IMG/VR virus record: IMGVR_UViG_3300035338_000016
Location: 14,784-78,783 of that record
Source: a virus
Strand: one strand, 5' to 3'
DNA: 64,000 nt
Part shown: in pieces, positions 1 to 32,942 of the stretch
Layout: the number at the start of each line of letters is the position of its first letter
Position numbering within the stretch: the stretch's first letter is position 1
Program-made: the position numbers and the translations under genes
Notes under the pieces: model-generated
The model's database searches: none
What the model was told of the DNA's origin: nothing
The model's input: only the letters and a program-made list of their open reading frames with translations

Positions 1-17
1 TTACGTCTTTTGGATCG

Positions 18-431
18 TTAATCATATTCACATTCTCCAATCTCACAAATATCTACTCTAACAATATAAGTATCACGTTCAATAAAACGAATATCATCGC
101 ATGTTTCTTTTGCATACTTATATGAATGATATAATTTAGCTTTCCTTATTTGTTTATCCCATTTGTTATATCCAATAAAGTAAAACCCGTCTCTGTCTTT
201 AACAGCAAATGTATTATCTCTTATTGTTTCTGCCTTTGGTTGGTTTAAGTTTCTACCACATATCGGGCAAAACTTCCATTTAGTTTCATAGTCTACACAA
301 ATATTATTACTATCTTCTCCATTACACCAATCTACTAGAATAGGATAATCATCTTCCCATGTGTCAGATATATCCTCTTTCTCGTCTTTATGTACGCAGG
401 TATTGCATCTTACTTTGCAAAAATCACACAA
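18..431 (-). CDS. Hypothetical phage protein with Cys motifs (CDFC, FCPICG)
   Basis: 137-aa ORF, TTG start, AAAGGAG SD, zinc-ribbon-like motifs. Confidence 0.6.
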   Translation of the reverse strand: MCDFCKVRCNTCVHKDEKEDISDTWEDDYPILVDWCNGEDSNNICVDYETKWKFCPICGRNLNQPKAETIRDNTFAVKDRDGFYFIGYNKWDKQIRKAKLYHSYKYAKETCDDIRFIERDTYIVRVDICEIGECEYD

Positions 432-7871: not shown

Positions 7872-10235
7872 CTATGCTATGTCCTTTAATCTATTTTTGT
7901 TTTCAAGAAGAAATCCTCTCAAAAATGTTTGTTTGGTCTTTACTTCTTTTGTTTGAATTGCTTTTGTGATTGCATAACTATTTCCTACTAACACACAATA
8001 TCTTTTAGCTCTAGTGATAGCTGTATATAATAATTCAGAATTGTTCATGATGTAGCTGCTACTATCAATCCCTACAATAGTAGATGCAAATCCACTACCT
8101 TGCATCTTGTGAACTGTACAAGCATAAGCCAACTCTAATTTTTTAGATTCTTTCTTATTAAATACCACTTCTCCAATGCCAATAAAATCAATTGTGCAAT
8201 AACCATCATCTGAAATATCTTTTACGATTCCAATATTTCCATTGAATACAGGTGTAATTTCACCTTCCGTATTTGTACACTTATAATTATTTTTTGTATT
8301 TAAAACCTTATCTCCAACTCGTATAATGTATTTCTTTGTATCTTCATTTTTCTTTTCTAAAAATATTTCTAATTCATTGCCTTCTGTGAATTTTGGATTA
8401 TACAAAGCTTGAATTTTAGTATTTAGGTTATAACAAGATAATTCTCCACGAAGTCGCATTGGAACGCATACTTGCACTTCAATTATGTCATTGTATTTTT
8501 CAATTTCCCTTTGAAAATGAGTCATTATTGATTCTACTAGAGTCTCTTTATCGGTTTTATTATCTGAAATATCTAATTCCATATCTTCTAATTCACCTAA
8601 AATTTCATGTCCAGTAAAATTATTAGAAAATATTAATTCTTGGTTTGCAATTTTAATTGATGTAGGAATAATTCCACTTCTCAATGCCTGTCTATGTGGT
8701 TTGGTCAATCGTACAACTGGTAATACTTCACTATCCAAAATATCAGCAAAAACTTGACAATTTCCAATAGGTGTTAGCTGTTGAACATCTCCCATAATAA
8801 TTACCTTTGCTCCTGTTGGTATAGCTTCTAATAATGAAAGGAACAATGTACCATTTATCATAGTTGCTTCGTCAATCAGTACAATATCGACAGCTAATTT
8901 ATTATATTTATTAAAGTCAAAACTACCGTTCATATATTGCAAAGCTCTATGAATTGTACAAGCTGGCAACCCCGTAGCTTCTGTAATTCTTACACTGGCT
9001 TTACCCGATAACGCACATGCTAAAATACTATAATCTTCATACAATGAACAAATGCCATTTGCGGTCGTGGTTTTGCCACAACCGGCATCGCCCGTGATAG
9101 CAATAACATAATTATCAAGACTTAATTTAATAGCACCCCTTTGCTCATCTGTGAAAGGAAAACTTTGATTGTCCTCAACCTTTGTAACAATATCTTCCCA
9201 ATTGCAAATATTAAAAGACTTAGGAATATAATCTTGATGTAAATCATTTTCTAATGAATCATCATCTTCTTCATTACTTTCAATTATTTTGATGTTTCCT
9301 ATTTGTAATCGCATTAACTCTTTCATAATATTTTCTTCAAGTTCATAAAATTTTCGTAAAGCAATTTTATTACCATTATCAACTACCACAACATCTTTAT
9401 GATCTACCATTAATTTAGCCGTTGTATTTACTACTTCTTCTGGAACAAATCCAAGAGTGTCATATAGTGATTGCATTAATTCTTGATATGTAAGATAACT
9501 TTTACCTGCTTCACCTTGTTCATTTAAATGATGCAACAAGAATCCTTTAATTCTACGAATATCATATTGACCAATTCCAACCTTACAGGCTACCTCATCA
9601 GCTTTTTTAAAACCAACACCATCCACTCTTACTAAATCATATGGATTGTTTCTTACTACATCTATCACCGTATCAGGAGAATTATAAAACTCAACTAATT
9701 TTTTAATAAAAGTATGAGTCAATCCAAGTTGACCTAGTTCCATATAAATTGAACTATAATCCTTTGCTTCTTCATATTCATCAATCATTTTCAAAGCTAC
9801 TTGATTTCCTATTCCTTTTATCTCCATTAAAGACTTTACATCTCTATCTTCTAAGAGTTTCAAAACATCTTCGTATTTATCAAATAGCTTTTCTACCAGA
9901 TTTTCATTTAATATATTCTTCAGAAACTCTTTTTGTTTATCCTTACTTGAAATATCAATACACTTACTCATATATAAGATTTCATAAGTGTCACCATAAA
10001 TTTCATGAGTATCTACTACACGACCGTACATTTTGTAAGTTGTACCATAATCAAGTTTACAAACATTTCCTTTGTATTTTATTGTTTCAAGTTCTTCACA
10101 ATTTTCTATTGGTTTTACAATTCTTGCACTAAATATTGCAAACTCCCCTGATTCAACACTCTTGGAATATTTAGGAAATACAATTCTTTCTAAAACTACC
10201 TCTGCTTTTACAATCTTTTCTTCTTCCAATATCAC
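7872..10235 (-). CDS. recD2: RecD2-like SF1B DNA helicase
   Basis: NPYDLVRVDGVGFKKAD HhH region, Walker A GDAGCGKTT, DEATM, LAYACTVHKMQGS. Confidence 0.9.
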   Translation of the reverse strand: MILEEEKIVKAEVVLERIVFPKYSKSVESGEFAIFSARIVKPIENCEELETIKYKGNVCKLDYGTTYKMYGRVVDTHEIYGDTYEILYMSKCIDISSKDKQKEFLKNILNENLVEKLFDKYEDVLKLLEDRDVKSLMEIKGIGNQVALKMIDEYEEAKDYSSIYMELGQLGLTHTFIKKLVEFYNSPDTVIDVVRNNPYDLVRVDGVGFKKADEVACKVGIGQYDIRRIKGFLLHHLNEQGEAGKSYLTYQELMQSLYDTLGFVPEEVVNTTAKLMVDHKDVVVVDNGNKIALRKFYELEENIMKELMRLQIGNIKIIESNEEDDDSLENDLHQDYIPKSFNICNWEDIVTKVEDNQSFPFTDEQRGAIKLSLDNYVIAITGDAGCGKTTTANGICSLYEDYSILACALSGKASVRITEATGLPACTIHRALQYMNGSFDFNKYNKLAVDIVLIDEATMINGTLFLSLLEAIPTGAKVIIMGDVQQLTPIGNCQVFADILDSEVLPVVRLTKPHRQALRSGIIPTSIKIANQELIFSNNFTGHEILGELEDMELDISDNKTDKETLVESIMTHFQREIEKYNDIIEVQVCVPMRLRGELSCYNLNTKIQALYNPKFTEGNELEIFLEKKNEDTKKYIIRVGDKVLNTKNNYKCTNTEGEITPVFNGNIGIVKDISDDGYCTIDFIGIGEVVFNKKESKKLELAYACTVHKMQGSGFASTIVGIDSSSYIMNNSELLYTAITRAKRYCVLVGNSYAITKAIQTKEVKTKQTFLRGFLLENKNRLKDIA

Positions 10236-12811
10236 ACCTCACTATCGTGAATTAAAGATTTACCCTTTGTATAGTTTCTACTTATAATTTCATATTGTGT
10301 AATAACGTCATATTCTTTATCAATATCGGCGGCTAAGATATTAATACCCTTATCATCTTTACCAATTATCTTTTGACCAAATATTTTCTCTGACTTAATA
10401 ACGTCAATTATATCTCCATCTTGTAGAGGTAAAATTTTATAAACCTCCTTCTTTACTTTTCTATATTGAATTTCACCTGATTTCATATTGTAAATAATAA
10501 TATTTGGTGCTATAACATCTCTGGTGTTTAACACAAACCAACGATTGTCATTCAACTCACCATCTATAAATCTAACTTCATTAAATTTTGATACTTGCAT
10601 AGCCATTATTTCATATGGATCAATGTGATTATTCTCAATAGTTTCAAATATTTCTAATAATGCTTTGTGGGAATCGAAGTTATTATAGGATTTTCCTGTT
10701 TTAGATAATTCAGAATTGTTTTTAATTATAGATTTGATGGAGTCATCAGATATTTTCTTGTCAAGATTAGTGACAGTGATTTTATCTTTTCCATATAATA
10801 AGTTAAAATAATCTCGAAACGTTAAAAGTTTTTGGGTTTTTCCATATGCTCCACAACAATCAGCAATGATATAACCTTCTAAAACTTTTTTAGTAATTTT
10901 ATTTTCTAAACATTTTTCCAAAAATTCATAGAAATTTTGACTTTCACACATGCACTTGAATAGAATCTCAGGAATTTCGTCTATTTTTTCAATGTCCTTC
11001 TCCGTGAATTGTCTAATTCTTTCTTTAGCTGCATCTATGTAATACTGCCTATCAAGATATTCTGGAACTTCAACATTATTAATGTCATCGTTGTTTATAA
11101 AACATTTATCTGGTGTGTAAGCTACTTTCTCAAAACTTTTTTGTCCTTTTTCAATCTTTACTTTGTAAATACCTTTGTCTTCTGATCTGTTTGAAGCGAA
11201 TACTCTATGTACTTTTTCTTTTAATGGCGTTCCATCTTCCACAAAAATTTTATCTTTGCCATCCACTTTTACTTTCTTACCTTCACCATATACTACCCCT
11301 TTGTACAAGGCTGTAAGCTTAATTACTTTTTGAAATTCAATCAATTTATCAGCTTGATTTATAGTATCTTCCACGGGGATGTCATGAACAAAATAATTAA
11401 CTAATGCTTTGTTTAGTATTGGAAGATCATAGTCAATTTCTGATAATTCTTTTACATATGCTCCCTTACATTTATAATGTCTATCTTCTAAGTCAATCAA
11501 AAGATAATTATTTACATCTTTTTGAACTAATCTGCCGTGTTTGTAAACATCAAACTCCAACTCTAATTTTGTTCTATTTTCCCATTCTTTAGATATAGCT
11601 TTAACTTTATCTACATCTTCCATAGTTTTGACTCTAACATAAATGCCATCTGTATTTATCTGTAAGATTTCACACATATCTTCTAATCGAGCAGCTAATT
11701 CAGTTAAATATAGTTGACCTGCAATACACACATTGTTACTCTGTACTGGATCATAGCATGGAGAGTTTCTATCTTTTAAAATTCCATAGGTACTATTAAT
11801 TACGATTTTTAATGGTTGTTGTCTTTTGTCTTTTATCTTTTTTAATTCTAATCGTCTGTCTCTCATGTTCTCAAAGTCTTTAGGATTTTTAAGTTTTCTA
11901 CTAGAAAAGCCTTCGTTAATCATTAAAGATGGATATAGACTAGCAACATCGGCTGCTACTAAAATTCCTTCAAAAATTTCATTATCTTTACTACCATGTA
12001 ATCCCCCATAACCATATACGCAAGGAACTCCCCCTACTTTAGTAATTAACTGACGTGTACTGTTACTATCAACTTCTGTTTTTAATGGTAATTTATAACT
12101 TTTATTCTCAGGTTTTAAGTACCAATCAACAATATATTGGTATTTTTCTGGCATTCTTAAATTAGAAGGTATGGTAATTTCAAACTCATCGTCAATTGTA
12201 TGTTGTTCAATTGCTCCTAATATAGTAGCTGCTAATTGGGCTTTTGTTTTATTGAACATTTCCATATCTAAGTTAAACATTGAAATCATATCTAATTGAG
12301 CTTCAAATTCTTTAATTGTAGAATCCAAAGTTTTCAATGTTTCTTTTACGTCATGTATGTTATATTCTTTAATTTGACGAATTTCGTCTCCTGTCAATTT
12401 ACGTTCAATATCAAATGGAACATCTGTTTCTTTGATCATATCTCCCATAAAGGCTTCAAGCTGTTTCAAAGACTTATCTTTAAGGATTACATCATAATTA
12501 TTTAAATGATATTTCTTAGCATTTTTTACAACTTGAAATCCTTTTTTCCCACTCATGATTAATTCATCATTTATGTAAGATGGATTCATACCATCTAAAA
12601 TTCCTTTGAATAAAAATTGATCATACTGTCTACTGTTATATCCTACAAAAATAGCATCTTTATGTTGATTGTAAAAATCTATTAATTCTTGTCTATTGTT
12701 GATGATGGTAATTGGATTTTCTCTATCTTCTCTATCAATAAATGTTACGCACCACCAATTTATTTTAGAAAACACTTCAAAATCATATCCATAAATCTTT
12801 CTATCAAAAAT
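10232..12811 (-). CDS. Family-B DNA polymerase with a C-terminal DnaE-like extension; probable ATT start at 12811
   Basis: Motifs DVASLYPS, KIVINSTYG and NTDG. ExoI YDFEV lies in frame upstream of the tracked GTG (12775). AGGAGG lies 8 nt before ATT. Confidence 0.85.
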   Translation of the reverse strand: MFDRKIYGYDFEVFSKINWWCVTFIDREDRENPITIINNRQELIDFYNQHKDAIFVGYNSRQYDQFLFKGILDGMNPSYINDELIMSGKKGFQVVKNAKKYHLNNYDVILKDKSLKQLEAFMGDMIKETDVPFDIERKLTGDEIRQIKEYNIHDVKETLKTLDSTIKEFEAQLDMISMFNLDMEMFNKTKAQLAATILGAIEQHTIDDEFEITIPSNLRMPEKYQYIVDWYLKPENKSYKLPLKTEVDSNSTRQLITKVGGVPCVYGYGGLHGSKDNEIFEGILVAADVASLYPSLMINEGFSSRKLKNPKDFENMRDRRLELKKIKDKRQQPLKIVINSTYGILKDRNSPCYDPVQSNNVCIAGQLYLTELAARLEDMCEILQINTDGIYVRVKTMEDVDKVKAISKEWENRTKLELEFDVYKHGRLVQKDVNNYLLIDLEDRHYKCKGAYVKELSEIDYDLPILNKALVNYFVHDIPVEDTINQADKLIEFQKVIKLTALYKGVVYGEGKKVKVDGKDKIFVEDGTPLKEKVHRVFASNRSEDKGIYKVKIEKGQKSFEKVAYTPDKCFINNDDINNVEVPEYLDRQYYIDAAKERIRQFTEKDIEKIDEIPEILFKCMCESQNFYEFLEKCLENKITKKVLEGYIIADCCGAYGKTQKLLTFRDYFNLLYGKDKITVTNLDKKISDDSIKSIIKNNSELSKTGKSYNNFDSHKALLEIFETIENNHIDPYEIMAMQVSKFNEVRFIDGELNDNRWFVLNTRDVIAPNIIIYNMKSGEIQYRKVKKEVYKILPLQDGDIIDVIKSEKIFGQKIIGKDDKGINILAADIDKEYDVITQYEIISRNYTKGKSLIHDSEV

Positions 12812-12829
12812 AAGAGTGACCTCCTTCTT

Positions 12830-14569
12830 TTAAATTCCAAAACCTTGTACTACACTACTTTTTTTGAAAATCCAATCTTCAACTAATATTTGTGAACACT
12901 TATTATTTTTCATATCAATTGAAAATTTCCCTACAATATCAAACTCAATGTTATCTCCACATTCTAATATCTCTTTGTATAAAGCCATTAATGAACTTCC
13001 TTTTGTTTGTTTTACAAATTTTATATTATGGTAGATAAATTCGATTCTATTTTGCTTAGCTCCAATTAGATGTAAATTATATTTATTGCAAGAAACCCCT
13101 TTAATTAAAAACAATGGTTCACTTACGGTGCTCCCCCACACATGATGATATTTAGCTACATTTTTTATGACTTGGTCATGCAATAAATTAGCATCATAAC
13201 TGTTATAAACGTGATATGTTGGCTCATCTATTTTTTCCATAGTAGATAATAATGAAAATAATTTATTTGTATTTTCAAATGGTATCTCACAACCAAACGC
13301 ACCCTCATGACCTTCTACTTTTGTAAATAATCCTGTGTTTTTACACCAGTCATTGAAGTTTACAATTTCACATTTATCATTACCTCTTCCACTACCTTTG
13401 CAAACATCACCTTTTCTTCTCATTAATAAACACGGTCGTTGATACTGATCTGCTAACCTATTTGCAATTAAACCAGTGAAATTACCATCTACGTTATCTC
13501 TTGCGTTACAAACTAAAATTGGAAGCTTATCTAATTCAAACTTAATTATTTCTTCTGATAATACTTCTGCACTTTCTTGTGTTATTTTTTTCTGTTTTCT
13601 ATTTGAAGATTCACAAGATTTCAAAACGTATTCTTGGATAGTCATATTGACAATGCCTTTTCCTTTTACTTTTCTTTCCTTCATTTCATCTGAATTACAC
13701 AAAGCTTCAAACATAAAACATTTTTCTTCGTATTCTCCCAATCGTATTAATGAATTAATCAATGGGCATACATAAAACCCAATACCATTTATTGTTACTT
13801 GGTTATTCATTGAATACATTTGAGCATCTACCAGAACCTTGATTAATTTATTTCTTCCTGTTTTATTAGACATTTGACGCAAACCTTCAAGAACTAAATA
13901 CCTAGTTTGTAAATTTAATAAATCTGCTCTATCTCCAATCATCCCTAAAGCTACTAAATCTAGGTAATCATCGGCATAATTTACGTTGTAATGTTTATCT
14001 AATACTTTAGCAAATTTATATACGATTCCTACTCCGGTCATTGCTTTATCAGTTACTTTACTCGACAACTGATTATTTACAACTGTCGCAGTATTCCCCT
14101 CATTTGAAATCAAATGATGATCTAAGACGATTATATTTTTTCCTTTTGCTATTAATCTGTTACATTCTTTTACATCACCAGAGCCGGCATCTGGAACAAT
14201 TATTAATTTTGCGTCATCTTCTTCCATAAAATCTACAACATCAACCAATCCATGTTCTTTCCCTTTATGTATATAACATCTAATTTCTACTGTTGGTTTG
14301 ATTCTTTTTATGTATTGATACATTAATGCGGCTGATGTATAACCATCGCAGTCACAATCTACTAAAATATCAATAGTATGGTTGCTATCAATATGTGAAA
14401 TTAAAATGTCTCTTGCTTTCTCAATGTTGTCTAATAGTAATTCGCTTTCTGTATTCTTAACTGTTGGATTAAGGAAGGAGTTAATATCTTTAATCCCTTT
14501 CAATCTCAAAATATCTTCTAATTCTGAGCCAAATCTAACAGTACCAAGTAATTCATATTTGAAACCCAT
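12830..14569 (-). CDS. RecJ-like DHH/DHHA1 ssDNA exonuclease (SPbeta YorK-like)
   Basis: DCDCDGYTS, LDHH, DLVALGMIGD, GSGRG and GHEGAFG motifs. Confidence 0.92.
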   Translation of the reverse strand: MGFKYELLGTVRFGSELEDILRLKGIKDINSFLNPTVKNTESELLLDNIEKARDILISHIDSNHTIDILVDCDCDGYTSAALMYQYIKRIKPTVEIRCYIHKGKEHGLVDVVDFMEEDDAKLIIVPDAGSGDVKECNRLIAKGKNIIVLDHHLISNEGNTATVVNNQLSSKVTDKAMTGVGIVYKFAKVLDKHYNVNYADDYLDLVALGMIGDRADLLNLQTRYLVLEGLRQMSNKTGRNKLIKVLVDAQMYSMNNQVTINGIGFYVCPLINSLIRLGEYEEKCFMFEALCNSDEMKERKVKGKGIVNMTIQEYVLKSCESSNRKQKKITQESAEVLSEEIIKFELDKLPILVCNARDNVDGNFTGLIANRLADQYQRPCLLMRRKGDVCKGSGRGNDKCEIVNFNDWCKNTGLFTKVEGHEGAFGCEIPFENTNKLFSLLSTMEKIDEPTYHVYNSYDANLLHDQVIKNVAKYHHVWGSTVSEPLFLIKGVSCNKYNLHLIGAKQNRIEFIYHNIKFVKQTKGSSLMALYKEILECGDNIEFDIVGKFSIDMKNNKCSQILVEDWIFKKSSVVQGFGI

Positions 14570-14584
14570 TTTTACTCCTTCCTA

Positions 14585-15664
14585 TCATCCATTTGTACCA
14601 ACGTATATTTTTTGTTCCATTAATTTAAGCAAAATATCTTTCCCCATATCGGTAGGAGATGCTTTGTATGGTAATAAATTTCCTGAATCCCATAGCACAG
14701 AAACTCTTACGAATGGACTTAATTTATCAATTATTTTTTCTTTTATGTGAGTTGCCCATTTTTTACATTCATCTGAATCTAAAGATTGATATTGTTTATC
14801 AAGAGCAACTATAACTTCCCTTACACCTAACATTAATATCATTCCTTTTTGAAAATCGGTTAAATTACTTCCACATAAAGCAACTGTAAAATTATCATCT
14901 CCAAACATAGTATCTGTTTGAAATACTGATTTTTCAGCTTCCACTAACATAATTTTCTTTTTTTCTTGAATTGCCGTTAAGTTATGATTTAAGCCAAATA
15001 AATTTTGTCCTAACGAATGATTGTAAAATTGTTTTCCTACTTTAAACGGTGTATATTTGCCAAAAAGTTCAATTTCTTCCTCTATCAAGGATCTTCCTCT
15101 TACTCCAATCAATTGATTATTTATGTCAAAGTGAGGAATTATTATTTTTTGTTGCCATGTGGAATATAAAATTTTGTACTTTTTCATTGTTTCAATTGAA
15201 ATACCTTCGTTAATCCAATCTTCCACATATAACTTTTGAAAAATTCTTAATATAGATTCATTGTATAAAATTAATGGTTTTGTTGTTTTTTCTTTTTTTG
15301 TGTTTCGTTTATACTTTCTAATAAAATCCCAATCTGATATTTGTTCCTGTTTACCAAATCCATATTCACAATTATCAATATTTAATTTTATACAAATCCA
15401 ATTAATAGCTTTTGGGAGTTCTGTAGGTTCATACCCTTTATATCCCATTACTACACCGATAACATCTAATTGTCCACATTCCGAATAGCAATGGAAAGAT
15501 TGAGAGTCTTTATAGTAATATAACTTGGGTTTTAATCCATGATGACATACTGTATCAGTTATCCATTGATCATCATCTTCATAATAGAAGGTTGCCCCCA
15601 TCTCTAATAACAATTTTCTTACGTCATCTTCAGAAAGCTTTTCTTTCAATTCTTGGGCGGTCAT
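14585..15664 (-). CDS. DNA primase (Zn-binding plus TOPRIM; YorJ-like)
   Basis: TVCHH...KLYYY...FHCYSECG zinc domain, IIIPHFD, LVEAEKS, IVALDK. Confidence 0.9.
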   Translation of the reverse strand: MTAQELKEKLSEDDVRKLLLEMGATFYYEDDDQWITDTVCHHGLKPKLYYYKDSQSFHCYSECGQLDVIGVVMGYKGYEPTELPKAINWICIKLNIDNCEYGFGKQEQISDWDFIRKYKRNTKKEKTTKPLILYNESILRIFQKLYVEDWINEGISIETMKKYKILYSTWQQKIIIPHFDINNQLIGVRGRSLIEEEIELFGKYTPFKVGKQFYNHSLGQNLFGLNHNLTAIQEKKKIMLVEAEKSVFQTDTMFGDDNFTVALCGSNLTDFQKGMILMLGVREVIVALDKQYQSLDSDECKKWATHIKEKIIDKLSPFVRVSVLWDSGNLLPYKASPTDMGKDILLKLMEQKIYVGTNG

Positions 15665-20154: not shown

Positions 20155-20391
20155 TCATTTTCTATTTGCTCCGATTTCATTATGTAGGTTTTCAACTTCT
20201 TGTCTGATTTCACTTAATTTTTCAATAATATAATCATATTCTTTATTGAATTGCTCAAGATTTTCTTTACAATTATTCTCATCCACATAGTCTGGATTTT
20301 GTACAACACCTGCCAACATATTCAAATTAGCTATTAAACTTTTGATTTTGTAAAACGCTACTTCTGACTTTTCTCTATCTAAAGTTATTAT
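20155..20391 (-). CDS. 78-aa hypothetical protein with probable ATA start
   Basis: AAAGGAGG SD followed by ATA ATA ACT; frame open to TGA at 20155; not in track. Confidence 0.55.
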   Translation of the reverse strand: MITLDREKSEVAFYKIKSLIANLNMLAGVVQNPDYVDENNCKENLEQFNKEYDYIIEKLSEIRQEVENLHNEIGANRK

Positions 20392-26916: not shown

Positions 26917-28260
26917 TCAAACGATATTTCCTTCTTCAAATCTTTTAAGTTCAATTTCGCTCATAGGTCTCATAACTTCAATCAATTTGCTTTCCACTAA
27001 CCACATGTCACCATTTTTATCTTTAATTACAGTCTTATTATTGGGAGCAAAATGCTCAATAACCCCTAACACTGATTTAGAACAACCAAATCTTTCTTCT
27101 CTCTCACCTGAATTAATATAAAAAGAAACATAATATTTTTTGTTTTCACATCCATACATGTGATTAACCATTGCTCCATTTGTAGCTTGTTCTAGTGTTT
27201 TAATTTCCATTTATTTTATTTACCTCCAACCCTGCAACATAGTTTAGACTTCACAATTATAAAATTCTACTTTGCTTCCGATATCCTCAACGTTAACATA
27301 GCATTCTTCATTTAATTCTATTGAGTGATTAGTAATAGCCCTCACTAAATACCATCCGGAAAAGTAACTATTTACTTTGTCAATTACATACACTGGTCTG
27401 TTTATCTTATTTCTCAAATTATCAACAGATAATTTATTCTGCTCTATTGAATCTTCAATCTTTCCCAACTTCTGGACACACTCCACTTTACTACTTAAAG
27501 CAGTATAGCTAGCACCATCAAAATAAGTTAATCGTTCCATATTATCCTCCTCAAAATATCTATTCTATCTATTATTTTCATCTCTTAAATCTCAATTATT
27601 CTTTCATCATCGTTCAAGAAGTCAATATATTTTTTGATAATTTCAGGAGTGATCTCTTCTTCTGTTTTGAAACAGTTACCAATTTTGTATAACAATAAAT
27701 CAAGATGTTCATTTGACCAGATAAAATAGTTAACTTCGCCATATCCATCTACACAATAATAACTTTCATTTTCTTTTGGTTTCCAAGGGATCTTCTTGAT
27801 TTTTATATTTCCTAACAATAAATCAATCAGTAATTCATCTCTTCGTGTACCTCCATAAGTAGAAAATAATCCTTCTTTGTAGATAACATAACTATTTGTA
27901 CCAGATATATTTTCAAAGACTTCTCCCAATTCAACACCTAACATTTTTGCAACTTGTTCCATATAGTTCAAATAATCACTCTCCTACCTGTATCCATAAT
28001 TTACGTTTACCCCATTTAACCTCAAAGAAAGTTACTTCATTCAATGATATACATAGTTCCGGACGATTCTTTCGGACTTCTCTCTTTGAGCTTATCAAAC
28101 CAATATCAATCATAATTTGAGGAAAATATCTCTCATTAGTAAAATGTGTTTTCTCTAATTCATTTCTCATCCAATCATCCATATCTAACCCAAATAAAAA
28201 TTCTGGTGAATATACTGGTTTACCTATGACTATATTTTCTATGTATCGTATATCAATCAC
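26917..28260 (-). other. Four hypothetical CDS (26917-27210, 27244-27540, 27585-27971, 27976-28260)
   Basis: ORF track and SD sites; the last probably starts at ATA 28251. Confidence 0.7.
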
Positions 28261-32705: not shown

Positions 32706-32942
32706 TTATCTCATCCAATGTCCATAAGCCCAATGACCTATTATTTTTCCACAATTCTTACACTGACAGTCATATTCTAAACACGTACTTCCCATCATGT
32801 TATCTAAATAATCGTGGTTACAATCTTCTAAATCAGAACACCCACAAGTACATCTCAAGGGCTCGTATTCTTTTGATATATACTTTAATTTAATTAATAG
32901 CCAATCTTTTATTTTGTACTTTAATTCTCTTAAAATGTAAAT
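32706..32942 (-). CDS. 78-aa Cys-rich protein with probable ATT start
   Basis: GAGGAG SD 8 nt before ATT; CTCGC and CKNCG motifs; not in track. Confidence 0.55.
   Translation of the reverse strand: MYILRELKYKIKDWLLIKLKYISKEYEPLRCTCGCSDLEDCNHDYLDNMMGSTCLEYDCQCKNCGKIIGHWAYGHWMR

Follow-up and report, generated by a model that had tools for sequence, protein, structure and literature searches.

The 64,000-nucleotide (nt) stretch analysed here, hereafter the window, covers positions 14,784 to 78,783 of the viral record IMGVR_UViG_3300035338_000016, a metagenome-derived provirus of 127.5 kb with 31% G+C. On its minus strand, a gene for a RecJ-like DHH phosphoesterase is followed by a family-B DNA polymerase gene, and the start codon of the latter is our subject. 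The polymerase frame is open from 12829, directly after the RecJ stop codon, and reads K K E V T L I F D R K I Y G Y D F E V. No in-frame ATG, GTG or TTG was found between this TAA and D-F-E (12784-12776), the first exonuclease motif (ExoI). The first canonical start is the GTG at 12775, from which the longest canonical open reading frame (ORF) in the ORF listing, 10232..12775, begins. The Shine-Dalgarno (SD) core AGGAGG (12825-12820) lies 8 nt (12819-12812) ahead of an ATT at 12811-12809, the sole near-cognate codon within workable SD distance. With an SD score of 14/16 at spacing 8, the site falls in the modal spacing class of this genome's canonical genes, in which SD spacing peaks at 6-9 nt. 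The original prediction, that the polymerase needs a non-AUG ATT start to include ExoI, gave all of its positions correctly. It also drew attention to the RecJ-like gene ending in the polymerase frame (TAA, 12832-12830); this is real but carries no meaning, since it is not conserved in relatives. No promoter or terminator was found between the two genes. In the leader (window 12805-12835, minus strand), the AGGAG of the SD could pair with CUCUU in the spacer, but this hairpin is weak and no better than shuffles (z = -0.75). A second occurrence of AAAGAAGGAGGT, probably due to chance, lies within the C-terminal part of the polymerase (~10437-10448, minus strand); it encodes K-K-E-V, and 8 nt after it comes an in-frame ATT that is 67 codons short of the stop.

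The polymerase matches Pfam PF00136 above the cut-off, PolB palm entries in the PDB, and phrog_1252 (DNA polymerase) at 4e-138 over residues 3-606. Its palm motifs A (consensus DxxSLYPS) and B (KxxxNSxYG) read DVASLYPS and KIVINSTYG, and motif C takes the variant form N-T-D-G in place of DTD, with N386, T387, D388 and G389 invariant. Across 36 aligned N-terminal domains, D10, E12, N59, Y63, D64, Y150 and D154 were invariant. An AlphaFold2 model of residues 1-265 (predicted local distance difference test score 84.9) places D10 and E12 on the first strand (6-14). The PDB sequence searches aligned the palm only, and the exonuclease domain was matched through the fold search, in which the N-terminal model retrieved almost solely family-B exonuclease domains (Foldseek). 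Using VIA-align, model residues 1-201 matched the exonuclease domains of Pol alpha, Pol epsilon, herpes simplex virus, T4, RB69 and phi29 with Z of 10-11, and family-B/DEDD exonuclease domains align with the model starting at residue 1-3. The aligned range was 102..368 of the T4 chain (1noy), while for phi29 model residues 3..172 aligned to 5..187. From these ranges, D10 and E12 would fall at phi29 residues 12 and 14, which we take to be its ExoI pair. A product started at GTG 12775 would lose two of the four exonuclease carboxylates and keep the other motifs intact. Homology, the start-codon state of relatives and the fold strongly support that the N-terminus with ExoI is needed, that the start lies upstream of the GTG, and that the ATT served by AGGAGG is this start. 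The core of the polymerase ends at about residue 606, near which homologues of ~560 amino acids (aa) also end; a C-terminal extension of ~250 aa follows (window 10232-~11000, minus strand) and is conserved in the long-form clade.

As called, a number of these polymerases lose the motif. P0001 and P0241 are called from GTG 12775, as is the identical polymerase gene of a second assembly, on a 483-kb Logan/ENA contig. For the database protein clusters at 94%, 89%, 80%, 78% and 67% identity, the called start is in every case the codon that immediately follows D-F-E. Of the 120 database clusters closest to the polymerase, 19 lack ExoI as called, as do 18 of the 47 at >=60% identity. In Kineothrix sp. 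MB12-C1 (P0018, 3.9-Mb contig), the NCBI-annotated 790-aa polymerase begins after ExoII, which is either another missed non-canonical start or a damaged gene. With standard gene callers, ExoI and in some cases ExoII is trimmed away, and such enzymes would be misread as proofreading-deficient; small genes with ATA or ATT starts are missed entirely.

Close relatives carry TTG or ATA at the codon homologous to the window ATT. At 79% identity, L005, L007 (the Lacrimispora sp. HJ-01 chromosome) and L008 have TTG there, in heads that read AAGGAGGAG, 4-6 nt, then TTG TTA GAT AGA GAG. L077 (83% over the N-terminal part) has ATA 9 nt after GGAGGTGA, with a TGA two codons earlier, and in L079 AGGAGGG is followed after 7 nt by ATA. 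Phage homologues at 44% identity (LincolnB, BMBtp15) begin ATG-(I/L)-F-Y-D-F-E. The codon of the window GTG 12775 is TGC, GTT or GTA in relatives and is not kept as a start. An exact-pattern scan of viral contigs for the window sequence returned nothing, and blastn against phages gave one weak match only.

Among 138 polymerase loci carrying the motif, 20 have no ATG, GTG or TTG between the nearest in-frame stop and ExoI (the strict class). Each candidate codon was also rated by its SD match at 5-10 nt, a scoring that is heuristic outside the strict class; by this measure the canonical codon lies only inside the SD in ~18 further loci, so that 20-38 of the 138 are non-canonical. The SD-scored start classes were ATG 62, TTG 15, GTG 12, ATA 33, ATT 11 and ATC 5. 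In at least 13 viral contigs from several metagenomes, the head reads AAGGCGGTGGTT TAA ATA ATA GAT, with an in-frame TAA abutting the ATA and the GGCGG core 8 nt away. In many "canonical" loci, an in-frame GTG or ATG forms part of the SD, as in AAGGATGGTGA (L091 type) and GAGGTGA (E-V-I-K-I-L-F-Y-D-F-E type), and the canonical codon of the isolated Staphylococcus phage PI-Sepi-HH2 probably likewise lies within the SD (GCGTGA after AAGGAG). A FastTree phylogeny, built from 123 unique polymerase cores without their start regions, required at least five start-class changes for the strict class and at least ten for the broad class. The window clade, starred on the tree, is (L079 ATA, (L077 ATA, window ATT, (L005/L007/L008 TTG))), and one clade of polymerases retains ATA at the same codon in 26 of its 27 members. 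From the codons of relatives and the tree, the ATA/ATT/ATC state appears to be old, maintained and of multiple origins in this polymerase family.

Several of these loci have further peculiarities. The polymerase heads of L083-L090, L105, L117, L119, L122 and L124 (locus ~2470-2490) read GTG GTT TAA ATA ATA, in which GTG GTT TAA is a two-codon mini-ORF within the SD, its in-frame stop directly preceding the ATA start; the head of the sister type L091 reads ATG GTG ATT GAT ATA ATA, without the stop. An extra gene of 224-290 codons lies directly upstream of the polymerase in L088:1612-2482, L103:1749-2490 and L113:1814-2486. Its head has TAAGGCGGTGG or AAGGATGGTGA, 8 nt, then ATA, as at the polymerase head of sister contigs, and the gene could have arisen through an insertion in which the junction was copied. 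In PI-Sepi-HH2 (L003, MT880871; 1455-1520), the TTG annotated as the polymerase start falls within the loop of a hairpin resembling a terminator (GCCCGA ttgac GTCGGGC TTT), and the codon served by the SD is an ATA where homologues carry ATG. A sequence almost identical to L003, L021, carries the label Streptomyces sp. and is probably a contamination.

The polymerase is not the only gene of this prophage with such a start. GGAGG motifs heading ORFs of at least 75 codons were scanned across the provirus for a canonical start at 4-12 nt. Of 39 such motifs, 33 serve a canonical start and six are orphans, the polymerase among them; four of the six orphans have ATT or ATA at 5-10 nt, and the other two are explained by a second SD and by a hairpin. 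Because orphan motifs are this few and mostly paired with ATT or ATA, the SD-ATT arrangement of the polymerase exceeds chance. The top candidates of a wider, score-based scan of the provirus comprised 84 canonical and 12 non-canonical starts, and in several of the latter PHROG profiles align upstream of the first canonical codon, from the very N-terminus (Table 1). These alignments indicate that ATT/ATA starts are not polymerase-specific, with at least five other prophage genes having profile-supported N-termini. A 409-aa gene at genome 116576 was set aside as ambiguous, its start not being settled by homologues: callers place it at an in-frame GTG within the SD or at an upstream TTG, and relatives at 92% begin 15 codons further on. 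For two other candidate genes, five related genomes yielded no orthologues. Neither a phage-encoded initiator-like tRNA (only tRNA-Asn) nor an IF3_C domain was found.

The same scan was applied to the isolate Lacrimispora sp. HJ-01 (NZ_CP173277.1). In 300 kb of its chromosome (43% G+C) only short ORFs were flagged, probably spuriously, and in 100 kb around its prophage (34% G+C) three ATA-start genes were flagged. This sister prophage has ATA at a DnaB-like helicase while its own polymerase uses TTG; in the helicase (L180), the first canonical codon, a TTG, is at 24, and homology begins at residue 14. Across polymerase loci, the SD heuristic flags AUH (AUA, AUU or AUC) starts in ~31% of polymerases and in 15% of neighbouring long strong-SD ORFs, a comparison that ignores kinship.

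Table 1. Features of the polymerase locus and other genes with proposed ATA or ATT starts. Positions refer to the window unless another source is named.
Feature	Position	Strand	Basis or remark
RecJ-like DHH phosphoesterase gene, 579 aa	12830..14569	-	ORF list; Pfam DHH 1.4e-15
TAA stop of RecJ-like gene	12832-12830	-	18 nt ahead of ATT, in polymerase frame
Extended SD GAAGGAGGT, core AGGAGG 12825-12820	12819..12827	-	8 nt upstream of ATT
ATT, proposed polymerase initiation codon	12809..12811	-	SD spacing; homologous codons in relatives
ExoI D10-F11-E12 (GAT TTT GAA)	12776..12784	-	D10/E12 invariant; strand 6-14 of model
GTG, first canonical start, chosen by gene callers	12773..12775	-	one codon past ExoI
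ExoII N59-x3-Y63-D64	12620..12637	-	invariant columns
ExoIII Y150-x3-D154	12350..12364	-	invariant columns
Full family-B DNA polymerase coding sequence as proposed, 859 aa + stop	10232..12811	-	Pfam DNA_pol_B, phrog_1252, tblastn to phage polymerases
924-aa protein, proposed ATA	genome 80025-82799	+	phrog_25339, residues 2-549 to 2-557; first canonical codon 33
249-aa protein, proposed ATT	genome 82787-83536	+	PHROG residues 2-243 to 4-255; first canonical codon 13
394-aa exonuclease, proposed ATT	genome 86273-87457	+	phrog_284 from residue 25; first canonical codon 51
96-aa protein, proposed ATT	genome 7389-7679	-	PHROG residues 4-95 to 3-95; first canonical codon 12
77-78-aa gene, AAAGGAGG, 5 or 8 nt, proposed ATA ATA	20155..20391	-	phrog_29888 from residue 8; first canonical codon 22
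Candidate 78-aa gene, GAGAGGAG, 8 nt, ATT	32706..32942	-	phrog_2993 from residue 20; first canonical codon 28
Candidate 91-aa ORF, strong SD at 5-8 nt, ATA	27976-28251	-	SD placement
DnaB-like helicase, 536 aa, proposed ATA	L180:15808-17415		ATA directly after stop, AATGGAGGTGA at 8 nt
381-aa gene, proposed ATA	HJ-01 prophage		phrog_9653, residues 2-373 to 2-366
181-aa gene, proposed ATA	HJ-01 prophage		phrog_2776, residues 2-171 to 6-181

The best explanation, and in our judgement a probable one, is that the polymerase is translated from the AUU at 12811-12809. The extended SD GAAGGAGGU would set this codon 8 nt downstream, giving an 859-residue family-B polymerase with the ExoI carboxylates D10 and E12 on its first beta-strand. 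The initiator tRNA would read the near-cognate AUU at reduced efficiency, so that a strong SD would be needed and the yield would be a fraction of the AUG level. The ATT would be an evolutionarily stable state rather than damage, since the nearest relatives carry TTG, ATA or ATT at the same codon. In Staphylococcus aureus, ribosome profiling (Ribo-seq) identified AUU/AUA starts at infC, cvfC1, ccpN and citZ, all with an extended SD; the non-AUG start of ccpN is conserved in Bacillus subtilis, and such starts yield ~10% of AUG expression, up to 30% in rich medium (PMC13009471). The expectation that an AUU start lowers expression agrees with this work on Bacillota, in which a strong SD is required. 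Because the anatomy of the polymerase site is the same as in the S. aureus and B. subtilis cases, reduced, SD-dependent initiation is most likely here. Non-AUG starts in vitro are reported to respond to nutrient state and to guanosine tetraphosphate (ppGpp; PMC5499595). Our comparisons show where the start has to lie and that its state is conserved and recurs; that initiation is reduced and sensitive to physiology or to IF3, and any adaptive purpose, we only infer. A full-text literature search returned no account of such starts in a phage polymerase or as a phage-wide habit. As a mechanism, a weak start codon backed by a strong SD is already known; unusual here is how frequent it is in one phage lineage.

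Some of our observations count against translation from the ATT, or limit what can be built on it. The AUU initiation is itself deduced from sequence and a structural model, the 94% and 89% relatives are known as called proteins only, TTG suffices in the sister lineage and ATT is therefore not obligatory, and the SD heuristic assigns ATA/ATT/ATC to 15% of control ORFs beside the polymerase, some of them falsely. The most direct alternative is initiation at GTG 12775, the first canonical codon and the choice of gene callers, which would produce a proofreading-deficient polymerase without ExoI. The 12 codons upstream of this GTG are, however, conserved as protein with synonymous changes relative to L005, ExoII and ExoIII are invariant, the V13 codon varies among relatives as described above, and the SD-like sequence ahead of the GTG is weak (score 10 vs 14 for the ATT); we consider this start very improbable. 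There is an equally slight chance that the ATT is a sequencing or assembly error for ATG or TTG, or a fresh disabling mutation in a decaying gene. The provirus is metagenome-derived and a single change from ATT to ATG would restore a canonical start, but the second assembly shows the same state, the gene calls of relatives at 94-67% identity begin at the same GTG, and L077 and L079 are also non-canonical (ATA) at the homologous codon; moreover, all catalytic motifs are intact and five other genes in the same genome share the architecture. Read-through of the RecJ TAA could yield a RecJ-polymerase fusion, given one frame and a single intervening TAA. This is the least credible of the alternatives: in L005/L007 the upstream gene closes with TAATAA in a different frame, in L077 two in-frame stops lie between the genes, the L083 group has its upstream stop in another frame, and a dedicated SD lies between stop and ATT. 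Frameshifting from an out-of-frame TTG at 12807 was rejected, as no slippery site is conserved and relatives lack the TTG.

Other alternatives keep the ATT as the start and differ in how or why it is used. Ribosomes that end the RecJ-like gene at its TAA might restart at the ATT 18 nt on, which would tie polymerase output to RecJ translation and make de novo 30S binding at the AUU minor. An upstream stop lies within ~5-25 nt of the polymerase start in every close relative, often abutting or inside the SD, and because it is always this close and neither promoter nor terminator separates the genes, RecJ coupling may help ribosomes reach the ATT. As the principal route it is rather unlikely, in that other ATT/ATA-start genes follow a terminator hairpin or a gap without a nearby upstream ORF end (e.g. 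genome 116576) and coupling by itself would not need the full extended SD that is maintained here at optimal spacing. Tolerated drift is a more serious competitor, though we do not favour it. In a phage of 31% G+C, G-to-A/T pressure would turn ATG or TTG into ATA or ATT, with strong Bacillota-type SDs compensating, at near-neutral cost for low-need genes and with no regulatory purpose. In line with this, ATA/ATT/ATC starts are scattered over unrelated prophage genes, are not seen in the 300 kb of 43% G+C host chromosome, and on the tree the start codon flips among TTG, GTG, ATG, ATA, ATT and ATC. Against drift, the 26 of 27 polymerases that keep ATA at one codon and the TAA directly ahead of the ATA in at least 13 contigs suggest a maintained state, and AUH starts are apparently commoner in the polymerase than in neighbouring long ORFs, by the heuristic and with the neglect of kinship noted above.

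Whereas homology, the start codons of relatives and the fold strongly support the need for the ATT start, its interpretation as a throttle on replicase dosage, to which drift is the adverse possibility, is only partly supported. The reading is weakened because ATT/ATA starts also occur at other prophage genes (the 924-aa protein, the exonuclease and small proteins) and because the sister prophage has ATA at its helicase and TTG at its polymerase. On a broader and more doubtful proposal, large temperate phages of Clostridia and other Bacillota would place genes systematically behind a strong SD, 8 nt and AUA/AUU, the replication module included, as a translational regulon tracking host initiation fidelity (IF3 level, ppGpp, growth phase). 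If this were true, replication proteins, for example, could be held low until conditions favour a burst, with the family-B polymerase as the most frequent member. ATA/ATT/ATC starts make up several percent of the prophage genes, far above the documented bacterial level, with none found in 300 kb of the related host, and these genes are a natural set for testing the use or tolerance of weak start codons in Bacillota.

The N-terminus proposed here resembles that of phi29-type DEDD domains with a short N-terminus, in which the ExoI D-x-E likewise occupies the first strand, ~10 residues into the protein. The two share fold and motif positions only, at 14-16% identity, and unlike the phi29 type the window polymerase family has N-T-D-G as motif C and, in its long form, adds the 250-aa C-terminal extension. 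With bacterial AUU/AUA initiation (infC and pcnB in Escherichia coli; infC, cvfC1, ccpN and citZ in S. aureus and B. subtilis), the polymerase shares a near-cognate AUH codon and a strong or extended SD at 5-10 nt, an odd codon that is conserved among relatives, and an expected yield of ~10-30% of AUG. The phage case differs in that the gene encodes a replicase and in that such starts concern several percent of prophage genes rather than a handful per bacterial genome. infC also has an autoregulatory loop through IF3, of which none is evident for the phage polymerase, known here from its sequence. In T4 and RB69, the family-B replicase gp43 has its output restricted when translation starts, through an RNA operator hairpin that covers the gp43 ribosome-binding site and to which the protein itself binds. 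The leader of the window polymerase, in contrast, appears to have no significant structure beyond the weak hairpin (z = -0.75), and the limitation would lie in the codon itself.

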